From Escherichia phage LH2: a stretch of DNA of 64,000 nt. Of the stretch, positions 43,794 through 46,887 are shown one piece after another (positions within the stretch are counted from its first letter, which is position 1; every line of letters starts with the position of its first letter). Made by a program: the position numbers and the translations under genes. Location: the sequence record OQ378934.1, one strand, 5' to 3'. The notes beneath the pieces are model-generated. The model was not told the origin of the DNA and searched no databases. It saw nothing but the letters and a program-made list of their open reading frames with translations.

Positions 43794-44051
43794 ATGCATA
43801 TTGTTTTATTTAAACCTACTCCGTATAACGTCAGGAAAAATACTCAATTCAAAGCACTTATTGCAGATACGTGGGAATTGGTGCTAGATATTCCAGCAGA
43901 AGAAAGTCCTCCATTTGGTCGAGTGGAATTTATTAAGTTTGCTGTGCGCCCTACGAAGCGACAGATTCGTCAATGCAAAAGATACTTTCGTAAAATCGTC
44001 AAGTTAGAGAAACAGTTTGTAACATGTGATTATGCAGAAGTTTTAAAATAA
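43794..44051 (+). CDS. Hypothetical protein
   Basis: ATG 43794; 85 aa. Confidence 0.45.
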   Translation: MHIVLFKPTPYNVRKNTQFKALIADTWELVLDIPAEESPPFGRVEFIKFAVRPTKRQIRQCKRYFRKIVKLEKQFVTCDYAEVLK

Positions 44052-44053
44052 GT

Positions 44054-44086
44054 GTTTACTTTTGTTGAAAATTGAGATACTATAAA
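44054..44086 (+). promoter_or_regulatory. T4-type early promoter
   Basis: gtttac 44054-44059; tactataaa -10 region. Confidence 0.45.
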
Positions 44087-44109
44087 CATAAACTACTGAG
44101 GAGATTATC

Positions 44110-44403
44110 ATGAAAAAATTTGTTTTTGCTGCAATTTTTGCTTTGACTTCTTGTGCTGCTCAGCCTGCTATGGCAGGTTATGATAAAGATTTGTGTGAAT
44201 GGTCTATGACAGCAGATCAGACTGAGGTTGAAACTCAGATTGAAGCAGATATTATGAATATCGTTGAGCGTGATCGCCCTGAAATGAAAGCTGAAGTACA
44301 AAAACAGCTTAAGTCTGGTGGTGTAATGCAGTATAATTACGTTCTGTATTGTGATAAAAACTTCAATAATAAAAATATCATCGCTGAAGTGGTAGGTGAA
44401 TAA
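44110..44403 (+). CDS. sp: Periplasmic protein, Spackle-like
   Basis: 97 aa with signal peptide MKKFVFAAIFALTSCAAQPAMA; position 41 to 61 as in T4; assignment by position and size. Confidence 0.55.
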   Translation: MKKFVFAAIFALTSCAAQPAMAGYDKDLCEWSMTADQTEVETQIEADIMNIVERDRPEMKAEVQKQLKSGGVMQYNYVLYCDKNFNNKNIIAEVVGE

Positions 44404-44415
44404 TTAGAGGTTAAT

Positions 44416-44772
44416 ATGTATAGTTCTGAATTTCCATATTTAAAAATGGAAAAAATTTCATACGATTTTATAGATGAAAAGGTTTATTACAGTTTTCATG
44501 AGCCGCGTTTTAACAGTGAAGTCGGTTTTATTGTAGTAAAAGACAATTTCATTTTAAAGATATATTCGGCATTAAAGGATTTTCACTACGAAAATATTAA
44601 CCTAAAATTTGATAAAGAAAACGTTCGTAATTGCGCAGTAACAATTACAGGAAATAAAGGTACATGCGTTATGCTATCTGATGAAATTAATGATTTGCTA
44701 AATGATGCCGAAAAGGTTGTTATTCCATCGATTGATGACCAAATTTTTAATGCTTTTATGAATAGAGGTTAA
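44416..44772 (+). CDS. Hypothetical protein
   Basis: 118-aa ORF. Confidence 0.5.
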   Translation: MYSSEFPYLKMEKISYDFIDEKVYYSFHEPRFNSEVGFIVVKDNFILKIYSALKDFHYENINLKFDKENVRNCAVTITGNKGTCVMLSDEINDLLNDAEKVVIPSIDDQIFNAFMNRG

Positions 44773-44773
44773 T

Positions 44774-44938
44774 ATGAAAACATATAAAGAATTTATCAAA
44801 GAAGATATGGTCGCTGGAGATTCAGGTGGTAGTCCTGAAAATATCTCTACTGGAACAACATCAGGCGCTGTAGTAAATAAAGGCCCTGAACAGATTCCTA
44901 AAAAGAAAAAAGAGGAATCTAAAGAAAAAGAAGAGTAA
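44774..44938 (+). CDS. Small hydrophilic protein with capsid-targeting-sequence-like N-terminus (54 aa, below ORF-track cutoff)
   Basis: MKTYKEFIKE resembles the T4 internal-protein CTS; SD GAGG upstream; ends 2 nt before primase ATG. Confidence 0.45.
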   Translation: MKTYKEFIKEDMVAGDSGGSPENISTGTTSGAVVNKGPEQIPKKKKEESKEKEE

Positions 44939-44940
44939 AA

Positions 44941-45969
44941 ATGTCATCAATACCTTGGATTGATAATGAGTTTGCATACCGTGCATTAGCTCATTTACCT
45001 AAATTCACACAAGTAAATAATAGTTCAACTTTTAAATTGCGGTTTAGATGTCCTGTTTGTGGAGATTCAAAAACCGACCAAAATAAAGCCCGTGGATGGT
45101 ATTATGGTGATAATAATGAAGGAAATATTCATTGTTATAACTGTAACTATCATGCACCAATCGGAATATATCTAAAGGAGTTTGAACCTGATTTATATCG
45201 TGAGTATATCTTTGAAATAAGAAAAGAAAAAGGTAAAAGTCGTCCAGTAGAAAAACCTAAAGAACTTCCTAAACAACCTGAGAAGAAAATAATTAAATCT
45301 CTTCCGTCATGTGTTAGATTAGATAAACTGGCGGAAGGCCATCCAATTATAAAATATGTAAAAGCTCGCTGTATTCCAAAGGATAAATGGAAATATCTTT
45401 GGTTTACAACCGAATGGCCTAAATTAGTTAATAGCATAGCACCAGGAACATATAAAAAGGAAATACCTGAGCCTCGTCTTGTTATTCCAATTTATAATGC
45501 TAATGGAAAAGCTGAGTCTTTTCAAGGACGCGCATTAAAGAAAGATGCTCCTCAAAAATATATTACCATCAAAGCTTATCCTGAGGCAACAAAAATCTAT
45601 GGTGTTGAACGGGTTAAAGATGGTGATGTATATGTTCTAGAAGGACCTATAGATTCACTTTTTATTGAAAATGGTATAGCTATTACAGGTGGTCAATTAG
45701 ACCTAGAAATTGTTCCATTTAAAGATAGACGTGTATGGGTTTTAGATAATGAACCTCGTCATCCTGACACTATTAAACGAATGACTAAATTAGTTGATGC
45801 AGGAGAAAGGGTTATGTTTTGGGACAAATCTCCCTGGAAATCAAAAGATGTTAATGATATGATTAGAAAGGAAGGTGCAACCCCTGAGCAAATTATGGAA
45901 TATATGAAAAATAATATTGCGCAGGGGTTGATGGCTAAAATGCGGCTATCTAAATATGCTAAGATTTAA
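44941..45969 (+). CDS. 61: DNA primase gp61
   Basis: 342 aa; Zn-ribbon CPVCGDS...CYNC; TOPRIM-like core. Confidence 0.92.
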   Translation: MSSIPWIDNEFAYRALAHLPKFTQVNNSSTFKLRFRCPVCGDSKTDQNKARGWYYGDNNEGNIHCYNCNYHAPIGIYLKEFEPDLYREYIFEIRKEKGKSRPVEKPKELPKQPEKKIIKSLPSCVRLDKLAEGHPIIKYVKARCIPKDKWKYLWFTTEWPKLVNSIAPGTYKKEIPEPRLVIPIYNANGKAESFQGRALKKDAPQKYITIKAYPEATKIYGVERVKDGDVYVLEGPIDSLFIENGIAITGGQLDLEIVPFKDRRVWVLDNEPRHPDTIKRMTKLVDAGERVMFWDKSPWKSKDVNDMIRKEGATPEQIMEYMKNNIAQGLMAKMRLSKYAKI

Positions 45970-46166
45970 ATTAACCCAACTAAAGCAAATGCTAAATCTA
46001 CGAATGTATCAAGAGTAATTACTGGAATACTAACGCCATGAGCAATAGCAACTGGCGATAAAACAAAATTCCAAAGTAAAATTCCTATCATAGCAGAAAT
46101 AGTAAAAGCTATACGTTTTTTATTACCTTTGATGGCATTAACAAGTGCCATTAATTTTTGTACCAT
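45966..46166 (-). CDS. Small membrane protein encoded on the opposite strand
   Basis: 66 aa, two hydrophobic segments; strong SD (AAGGAGG) 6 nt before ATG on the minus strand; convergent with 61. Confidence 0.55.
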   Translation of the reverse strand: MVQKLMALVNAIKGNKKRIAFTISAMIGILLWNFVLSPVAIAHGVSIPVITLDTFVDLAFALVGLI

Positions 46167-46236: not shown

Positions 46237-46887
46237 GTGAATTACCAAAAAATTTACTCGGCTTTAATTACAAAAGCTAAATGCCGGCATCTTGGCGGAT
46301 ATAAAGAACGCCATCATATAATTCCTAGATGTATAGGAGGAGCAGATGACAAAAACAATCTTGTTGAGTTAACTGCGCGTGAGCATTTTATAGCTCATAG
46401 ATTATTAACTAAAATATATCCAGATGTGAGAGGATTGCATTATGCTGTAAATTTAATGCGATATAATAAAGGTGTTAAATTAACAAGTAGATTAATAGAA
46501 ACTCTTAAAATCCAAAACTCTGTTCTTTTCTCGGGTGAAAATAATCCTAGATATGGCAAGCCGTCATGGATTAAAGGCAAAAAGACCCCAGAAGAAACTA
46601 AAGCCAAAATGCGTCTAGCTCATAAAGGTAAAATTATATCCGATGAAGCCAAGGCTAATATGAGTAAAGCCCGAAAAGGAAGATTTAGCGGTAAAAATTC
46701 GCCTCGATACGGTTTACCAAATCCTAGGCGAGGAGAAATATGGAATAGTTATGATGCGCTTTATGAATTATGGGTTTATAATAATAGACCTAAGCGCACA
46801 AAATTTAATAAAATAGCTGTCAAGGCAGGTTATCCTAATATCTGCTATAGACATATGATAGAAAACTTCATAAGAAAGGAAAAATAA
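46237..46887 (+). CDS. Freestanding HNH homing endonuclease (Mob-like)
   Basis: GTG start; HNH motif ERHHIIPRCIGGADDKNNLVELTAREH; NUMOD3-like repeats; between 61 and 56. Confidence 0.75.
   Translation: MNYQKIYSALITKAKCRHLGGYKERHHIIPRCIGGADDKNNLVELTAREHFIAHRLLTKIYPDVRGLHYAVNLMRYNKGVKLTSRLIETLKIQNSVLFSGENNPRYGKPSWIKGKKTPEETKAKMRLAHKGKIISDEAKANMSKARKGRFSGKNSPRYGLPNPRRGEIWNSYDALYELWVYNNRPKRTKFNKIAVKAGYPNICYRHMIENFIRKEK

Follow-up and report, generated by a model that had tools for sequence, protein, structure and literature searches.

Does a reading frame of just 54 codons, set among the early replication genes of an Escherichia phage, encode a peptide of the phage head, as its first ten residues seem to say? 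These residues resemble the capsid targeting sequence (CTS) of T4 internal proteins, and the earlier note on this DNA took the frame for an unannotated gene whose CTS-like start leads into a low-complexity body and whose early position is unexpected for a packaged peptide. We took up the question in phage LH2, using a 64,000-nucleotide stretch of sequence record OQ378934.1 (the window), which is that of a Tequatrovirus and ~95-97% identical to its best public relatives across this stretch.

Gene 61.1 and its place beside primase

The frame (Table 1) translates to MKTYKEFIKEDMVAGDSGGSPENISTGTTSGAVVNKGPEQIPKKKKEESKEKEE and is a known, catalogued but uncharacterised gene of a T4-like (Tequatrovirus) phage, namely 61.1. 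So it is not unannotated: public records of T4 (NP_049649.1) and PP01 (BBC14369.1) carry it as 'gp61.1 hypothetical protein', and it matches phrog_1823 end to end (E 2.4e-33; residues 1-54 on profile positions 1-54) as well as, with residues 8-53, positions 109-154 of phrog_2086 (E 2.3e-16). Searching the literature for 61.1 or gp61.1 together with CTS, gene names or neighbours, we found table entries only and no functional work, and scans of the 54-aa protein against Pfam and NCBIfam gave no match even at E <= 10, the Gp23 family (PF07068) included. AlphaFold2 assigns the window protein a mean pLDDT of 62 and finds only a leader helix (residues 4-11) and one short helix; as modelled, gp61.1 is largely disordered and falls into three parts, a leader, a gp23-like core and a charged tail. 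Within the tail, the family alignment shows a conserved basic patch (K44, K45) and a variable remainder.

Table 1. Features of the 61.1 locus, in window positions, and peptides predicted from it
Feature	Position	Strand	Remark
Gene 61.2, upstream neighbour	44416..44772	+	118 aa; C-terminal half of AdfA family only
Shine-Dalgarno GAGG	44765..44768	+	5 nt before 61.1 ATG; read from sequence
Gene 61.1	44774-44938	+	ATG 44774, TAA 44936-44938; 54 aa
Leader, codons 1-10 MKTYKEFIKE	44774..44803	+	CTS-type tag with I-K-E prohead-protease motif at its end
Predicted gp21 cleavage junction Glu10/Asp11 (codons GAA GAT)	44801..44806	+	alignment with gp23 Glu65; cleavage inferred
Conserved core, codons 11-42 DMVAGDSGGSPENISTGTTSGAVVNKGPEQIP	44804..44899	+	homolog of gp23* 66-97 (N-fist and start of N-arm)
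Charged tail, codons 43-54 KKKKEESKEKEE	44900..44935	+	alignment
Stop codon TAA of 61.1	44936..44938	+	2 nt before primase ATG at 44941
Gene 61 (DNA primase)	44941..45969	+	constant downstream neighbour of 61.1
Predicted 61.1 peptides			uncut EDMVAGDSGGNPENISIGTTSGAVVNK; cut after Glu10 DMVAGD...VVNK

That the frame is real, as had been proposed, is borne out by its ribosome site, which sits within the final codons of gene 61.2 (stop 44770-44772), and by selection. Compared with diverged orthologs, the core has changes at 18-22 of its ~25 synonymous sites and at 5.5-12 of its 71 non-synonymous ones (pN/pS 0.14 for the core and 0.26 for the leader); 61.1 is a real gene under purifying selection. 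The case made earlier had also hung on conservation in relatives, and tblastn recovered 61.1 from 1,397 phage records, including phages of Escherichia, Klebsiella, Acinetobacter, Aeromonas, Enterobacter, Serratia and Proteus. Among 1.84 billion representative proteins, a search with the family profile picked out 50 clusters (50-251 aa), and E10, M12, A14, G15, D16, G19, I24, G27, T28, T29, G31 and V34-P38 are among the columns that hardly vary. The gene is conserved across Straboviridae and beyond, and few small 'hypothetical' genes of T4-like phages are as widespread. Two minus-strand frames (44698-44799 and 44861-44986) overlap the locus and are without support.

Genes in the window run helicase 41, dmd, 61.4, sp (spackle), 61.2, 61.1, 61, HNH endonuclease, 56 and soc, and from 41 to 61 this order is that of the T4 early replication cluster. 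The copy of 61.2 found here matches positions 115-211 of the 211-position AdfA profile (Pfam PF23813; E 2.4e-8), its T4 counterpart having 208 aa. According to tblastn, primase lies directly downstream of a 61.1 homolog in 45 of 45 loci, even where primase identity has fallen to ~50%, and the distance in the loci examined is usually no more than ~50 nt. Primase also follows 61.1 in RB49, 44RR2.8t, KARL-1, Serratia 4S and a KVP40-type vibriophage, with 61.1 being the sole gene between helicase 41 and primase 61 in 44RR2.8t. If the product is indeed related to the head, then a head-related peptide is hard-wired into a replication gene cluster.

T4 omics data place 61.1 RNA in the class 'early', and ipII and ipIII likewise have 'early' RNA but 'late' protein. 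Early transcription is therefore no argument against packaging, and the position of the gene is less unexpected than had been thought, given that the head genes 40 and soc lie nearby and primase adjacency is constant. Within 25 kb upstream of 61.1 there is no TATAAATA late promoter, and scans of the locus for sigma-70 promoters and terminators did no better than on shuffled sequence. Time-resolved T4 proteomics did not detect the protein (class 'NA'), and a T4 head mass-spectrometry study makes no mention of 61.1; both negatives are weak, as the protein is tiny and, once cleaved, would yield a semi-tryptic peptide.

The leader and the capsid targeting sequence

T4 IPII and IPIII both start MKTYQEFIAE (IPI starts MKTFKEFTST in the T4 record), and the leader of the window protein agrees with theirs at eight of ten positions; T4 61.1 itself starts MKTFKEFIKE. 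CTS mutagenesis by Mullaney and Black assigned targeting mainly to residues 4 and 7, and processing to residues 8 and 10 (review, PMC9026906), and all four of these residues in IPII/IPIII (Tyr4, Phe7, Ile8, Glu10) are identical in 61.1. Both differences (Q5K, A9K) are found in natural CTS-led proteins, IPIII orthologs starting MKTYKEFIAE and cargo proteins of 229 aa and 237 aa starting MKTFKEFIKE. When 2,070 ATG-led peptides of at least 30 aa, taken from ~164 kb of T4 and the window, were searched with M-[KR]-x-[YFW]-x-[ED]-[hydrophobic]-[LIVM]-x-E, only IPII, IPIII and 61.1 carried the pattern, 61.1 being its sole bearer in the window. Judged by this search, the match of the leader to the CTS is far above chance, and the CTS-like N-terminus singled out by the earlier note has held up, with its key positions kept and its pattern specific.

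Related phages were to be searched for further frames led in this way, and such frames are plentiful. A scan of IMG/VR with the leader DNA pattern yielded at least 120 stretches and at least 72 distinct proteins that start MKT[YF][QK]EF[IM]xE, two of them with the leader MKTFKEFIKE. Because unrelated bodies carry the same leader, it is a modular tag, and 61.1 is one bearer of it. Reviews (including PMC9026906) state that the 10-residue CTS by itself sends foreign proteins, GFP for instance, into T4 heads. At the DNA level, 22 of the first 24 nt of the leader are identical to ipII/ipIII, which is not independent evidence because AT-rich codons are preferred.

The leader of 61.1 is not, however, conserved among orthologs as the IP leader is. 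In a comparison within the same genomes, the IP leader is near-invariant (MKTY[QK]EFI[TA]E), whereas 61.1 starts with MKSFKEVMNE, MKTFKDFINE or MTLLEKYKQSLSE, or has a domain of ~105 aa in place of a leader. Given such drift and replacement, targeting of the CTS type cannot be the mechanism of the family as a whole, even though a looser theme (MK-x-F-x-(E/D)-F-hydrophobic-x-E) recurs in many distant short forms. Likeness to IPII/IPIII thus extends to the leader, MKTY(Q/K)EFI(A/K)E, with its position-4 aromatic, Phe7, Ile8, Glu10 and I-x-E end, and to the early RNA class. Beyond that the two differ, as the body of 61.1 is a copy of the gp23 N-terminus, unrelated to any internal protein and acidic rather than basic, leaves only 44 aa after the predicted cut and adjoins primase instead of an IP locus. 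Packaging of 61.1, moreover, is a prediction.

Resemblance of the core to the gp23 cleavage junction

Because some databases label its homologs 'major capsid domain-containing protein', 61.1 was compared with T4 gp23. BLASTP aligns residues 2-38 with gp23 57-93 without a gap (41% identity, E 7e-8), and hhalign pairs residues 1-42 with gp23 56-97 (probability 95.7%, E 1e-8) and the long forms of the family with gp23 54-109 (96.3%, E 1.7e-9). A PDB-wide profile search with the 61.1 family hit T4 gp23 chains only (E 4.5e-5), and the Smith-Waterman score of 75 was reached by none of 5,000 composition-preserving shuffles (29 +/- 4.4, maximum 54). Run against six-frame T4, the family profile found 61.1, then gp23 (E 8e-7) and then the leaders of IPII and IPIII. 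Since the profile search of 1.84 billion representatives lacked full-length gp23 at E <= 1e-3, the link rests on the pairwise, profile-profile, PDB-wide and shuffle tests.

What these alignments bring into register is the site of gp23 maturation. The prohead protease gp21, whose preferred motif is I/L-x-E (PMC12991175), removes the 65 N-terminal residues of gp23 (PMC9546572 and a further source). Glu10 of 61.1 falls precisely on Glu65 of gp23, where gp21 cuts (Glu65/Ala66), residues 11-35 are the counterpart of the 25-residue 'N-fist' of gp23*, and the basic patch of the long forms aligns with gp23 Arg100-Arg101. Of 174 distinct family sequences, 173 have a Glu no farther than two residues ahead of the core, and 158 of these 173 carry a hydrophobic residue at P3, in short and long forms alike. 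By all these comparisons, core and junction of 61.1 share homology with the gp23 cleavage junction and are in register with it, and 61.1 itself is a conserved mini-paralog of the gp23 maturation junction plus N-fist. This went unseen in the earlier reading: the body dismissed there as low-complexity is in fact the nearly invariant part of the family. Cleavage after Glu10, at first suggested by the CTS likeness, gains independent support from the in-register alignment with gp23 Glu65/Ala66, and the gp23-like junction and CTS-type leader together make for a concrete biochemical prediction, namely that gp21 cuts 61.1 after Glu10.

Likeness to gp23 includes the aromatic at P7, Phe at P4, Ile or Leu at P3 and Glu at P1, the G-D, N-I, G-x-T-S-G-A-V and G-P motifs and the basic pair that follows. 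In contrast to gp23, 61.1 has 54 aa only, with neither the HK97-fold body nor a Pfam Gp23 match; where gp23 has the 55 upstream residues of its delta-domain, the family has Met-Lys-Thr or, in long forms, an unrelated helical domain of ~105 aa; and 61.1 has invariant residues of its own. The leader aligns with gp23 56-65 (AQAFGSFLTE), and Tyr4, Phe7, Ile8 and Glu10 of the IPII/III CTS correspond to Phe59, Phe62, Leu63 and Glu65 of gp23. This common P7/P4/P3/P1 pattern, of which we found no mention in the literature, suggests that the CTS imitates gp23's own docking and cleavage segment. As for the core, its gp23 counterpart (66-105) lies inside the unexpanded head, disordered and probably in contact with the scaffold, and after expansion lies outside, contacting four subunits and contributing to the Soc site; the head-length mutations A66D, A94V and G97S lie in this region as well (PMC9546572). 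Because its gp23 counterpart is internal and probably in touch with the scaffold, the 61.1 core may plausibly share the scaffold as a partner.

Across the family it is junction and core that stay constant. Short forms of 50-70 aa have varied leaders, among them MKTFKDFINE, MKSFKEVMNE, MKTYKEFVKLNE and MTLLEKYKQSLSE, with MIGFKQFVEENKLKE in RB49 and MKSFLEC...QVDE in 44RR2.8t. Long forms of ~154-160 aa (phrog_2086) are found in KARL-1, Serratia 4S and many Salmonella, Klebsiella and Citrobacter phages, and the 159-aa gp61.1 entry in the table of a KVP40-type vibriophage is a long form, too. They consist of a conserved helical N-domain (~105 aa) followed by ...PLFE|DMVAGD...; AlphaFold2 predicts the N-domain as helical at pLDDT 77-88 and the core at below 50. 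Foldseek against the PDB gave no match for the N-domain, and hhalign ruled out that it is the delta-domain of gp23. Some family members have C-terminal extensions, and the cyanophage versions measure 237 aa.

Near primase, 61.1-like genes also occur in Stenotrophomonas phage DLP_6, Sinorhizobium phage phiM12, the cyanophages S-PM2 and S-RIM44 and a marine contig (L130). These distant cores resemble their own, shorter gp23 N-termini more, as with DLP_6, where gp23 reads ...LLGE|AAPTNQTGANI and the 61.1-like protein ...QINE|DGAPTNAAGGGNI. With the marine 61-aa variant as query, tblastn returned no hits, probably an effect of low-complexity filtering. T4-type 61.1 modules score z 9-15 against gp23 of the T4/Aeromonas type and z ~0-1.6 against that of the DLP_6/cyanophage type; for the DLP_6, L130 and phiM12 modules against their own gp23 type, z is 2-4 only. 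Co-variation of 61.1 with its cognate gp23 type is only suggestive at such weak statistics, and we treat it as a lead.

What the peptide may do

Tentatively, we favour a model in which gp61.1, as a mini-paralog of the gp23 N-terminus, is targeted to proheads and cleaved there by gp21. Made from early or middle transcripts along with the replication genes, it would persist until proheads form and dock on the scaffolding core via its leader and possibly its gp23-like core, too, much as the IPII/IPIII leader and the gp23 N-terminal region do. Activated gp21 would then cut it after Glu10, as it cuts gp23 after Glu65, freeing a 44-aa peptide of 4.6-kDa that may stay in the head or exit with scaffold fragments. 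Its N-terminal processing would be like that of the gp24 vertex protein, from which gp21 cuts a 10-residue piece after Glu; unlike gp24, a full capsid-fold protein, 61.1 has a body in which we found no sequence similarity to it. Several points speak against this model. The strict linkage to primase (45/45), which it leaves unexplained, hints at a replication role; with a pI of 5.0, the mature peptide as predicted would be acidic, whereas internal proteins are basic; there is no upstream late promoter, and proteomics did not detect gp61.1; and the leader drifts or is replaced in the very genomes that keep a canonical IP leader. If 61.1 is merely another small packaged peptide, the gain is modest, adding one entry to the T4 head inventory.

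That gp21 recognises and cuts the 61.1 junction is probable, and likelier than either this model or the decoy alternative that shares it. This alternative, which we rate as rather unlikely, sees gp61.1 as an unpackaged, early, disordered mimic of the gp23 junction that would occupy gp21, or be cut by it, outside proheads, buffering stray protease activity so as to time maturation or avoid tripping host sensors. It draws on the same junction mimicry as the favoured model, on predicted disorder, on early transcription without a late promoter and on neighbours with counter-defence roles (dmd, spackle, the AdfA-like 61.2), and it accommodates long forms and leaders not of the CTS type no less than short forms. 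According to a 2026 preprint, a CBASS CD-NTase has a disordered loop with an I/LxE motif, and immunity is triggered when T4 gp21 cuts this loop (PMC12991175), so free gp21 activity does exist and is costly to the phage. Like this loop, gp61.1 is predicted to be disordered and has an I/L-x-E motif, with its cleavage only predicted; the loop, however, is host-encoded and its cleavage activates immunity, whereas 61.1 is a phage gene. Against such mimicry outside the prohead, T4 carries 61.1 but does not escape sensing by CBASS when acb1 and acb2 have been deleted (PMC12991175), already has a protease inhibitor (Inh, by annotation), and would need the protein in abundance, yet proteomics did not detect it. 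gp61.1 might also serve as a gp21 pseudo-substrate that soaks up or paces the protease outside or inside proheads, setting maturation timing and/or blunting tripwires, which to our minds is quite improbable. If true, peptides of this kind would form a class not described before, acting in counter-defence or assembly control and conserved in T4-like phages from T4 itself to those of vibrios, rhizobia and cyanobacteria. Any modulation of gp21 by the peptide would bear on how bacteria sense phage prohead proteases.

The hint from primase can be taken at face value, with gp61.1 as a partner or regulator of primase or the primosome, or with its translation delivering ribosomes to gene 61, and the gp23 resemblance as an evolutionary leftover. 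Constant primase adjacency across diverged loci, the arrangement in 44RR2.8t and the 2 nt between stop and primase ATG in the window are all consistent with this. In most other lineages, though, 61.1 and primase are 30-50 nt or more apart, and RB49, DLP_6 and cyanophages have whole ORFs in between, so translational coupling of 61.1 and 61 is not conserved. That the amino acids of the core are so strongly conserved shows that the peptide itself matters, and no primase role accounts for a hydrophobic-x-Glu junction that is conserved and matches, in register, the cleavage site of a capsid protein; all in all we hold a replication-linked role to be unlikely. Very doubtful is an idea that takes the peptide, cut or uncut, to bind the capsid lattice at the position of a neighbouring gp23* N-fist, for example in hexamers facing the portal or gp24 vertices, and there to stabilise special sites or modulate expansion or Soc binding. 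The gp23* N-fist, with its 25 residues, four-subunit contacts and share in the Soc site, would suit such binding, unassigned densities have been reported under gp24* in the expanded head (PMC9546572), and G-D, I, G, T-S-G-A and G-P are conserved in both families. But reports describe no unassigned density that looks like an N-fist, residues invariant in 61.1 (M12, A14, V34-N35-K36, E39, P42) are missing from gp23, and distant lineages, cyanophages among them, keep a 61.1-like gene despite lacking Soc and having a much shorter gp23 N-terminus.

We give hardly any credence to 61.1 being a functionless relic, left behind when gene 23 was partially duplicated in its 5' part. Such duplications do occur, T4 annotation calling alt.-1/alt.-2 an old duplication of the first part of alt, whose product is packaged. 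Like alt.-1/alt.-2, 61.1 would be a small ORF with its origin in the 5' part of a gene for a head protein; they adjoin their parent gene, whereas 61.1 lies ~86 kb from gene 23. A core pN/pS of 0.14 with synonymous sites nearly saturated, ~1,400 phage records from many genera and the 50 clusters among 1.84 billion representatives effectively refute a dead relic. An anti-Lit/EF-Tu (Gol) decoy role for 61.1 was considered, too, and set aside; the Gol region presumably starts around residue 93 of gp23, where the similarity to short-form 61.1 stops.

The capsid targeting leader and the gp23 junction

The determinants of the capsid targeting sequence (CTS), the ten-residue leader of T4 internal proteins IPII and IPIII, coincide with the end of the propeptide of gp23, the T4 major capsid protein: Tyr4, Phe7, Ile8 and Glu10 of the former match Phe59, Phe62, Leu63 and Glu65 of the latter, position for position, when the ipII and ipIII leaders (L002) are compared with gp23. 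On this residue correspondence we suggest that the CTS may imitate the capsid protein's own junction. A scan of IMG/VR (loci L053-L132) found the leader MKT[YF][QK]EF[IM]xE at the head of at least 72 distinct and mostly unrelated proteins of 57-462 aa, a number to be read as a lower bound, with several such proteins in each genome among the matches listed. These proteins can serve directly as a list of candidates for packaging or ejection. That 5' ends of head-protein genes may give rise to small ORFs has a precedent in T4, where the annotation traces alt.-1 and alt.-2 to an ancient duplication of the initial portion of alt, a packaged-protein gene.

Long and distant relatives of gene 61.1

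Long forms of gene 61.1 (phrog_2086) share a conserved helical N-domain of ~105 aa, the invariant residues of which include L19, F24 and W27, and for which neither Pfam nor a Foldseek search of the PDB returned a match. The same N-domain is found in phrog_18642 (197 aa), joined to a different C-terminus. Distant T4-like phages retain a group of genes upstream of primase, whose products are a 61.1-like protein, a coiled-coil membrane protein and a conserved protein of ~120 aa; the gene order differs among these phages, and some lack part of the set. The cyanophage 61.1-like protein has the motif at the N-terminus (MS..SNLNE/MMAG.., with the slash at the junction) and a 200-aa Lys/Glu-rich extension.

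Features in the window and in the compared loci
Feature	Location	Strand	Remark
Gene 61.2	window 44416-44772	+	118 aa; Pfam AdfA match; upstream neighbour of 61.1
Candidate ORF	window 45966-46166	-	66 aa; strongly hydrophobic; begins at very end of primase gene
HNH/NUMOD3 homing-endonuclease-like ORF	window 46237-46887	+	216 aa; between primase and gene 56
T4 gp23 residues 56-65	L004 9111-9140		propeptide end
T4 alt.-1, alt.-2	L051 11066-11451		T4 annotation
KARL-1 gp227	L007 1665-2141		long form of 61.1
Serratia 4S gp59	L008 1677-2153		long form of 61.1
Further long forms of 61.1	L028-L050
S-PM2 p150	L173 1340-2053		61.1-like
S-RIM44	L178 1361-2074		61.1-like
phiM12 gp161	L174 1526-1951		61.1-like
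DLP_6 gp079	L176 671-1195		61.1-like

Variability around gene 61.1 and primase

The interval between genes 41 and 61 is a variable region in which 61.1 alone stays fixed. Between 61.4 and sp, PP01 (L001 1703-2207) has two additional small ORFs that are missing from the window (44051-44110), and several megablast matches join three to four pieces across this interval. Gene 61.2 is much shorter in the window than in T4 (208 aa), and covers only the C-terminal half of the Pfam AdfA ('Anti-DarT factor A') profile (positions 115-211); the short form is also present in PP01.

Downstream of primase, the interval up to gene 56 is occupied by dam in T4, whereas in the window dam is absent from it and the HNH/NUMOD3 ORF stands there instead; PP01 has neither at that position. 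The candidate minus-strand ORF, for which no family match was found, overlaps the sole terminator-like hairpin of the region (46129-46154).
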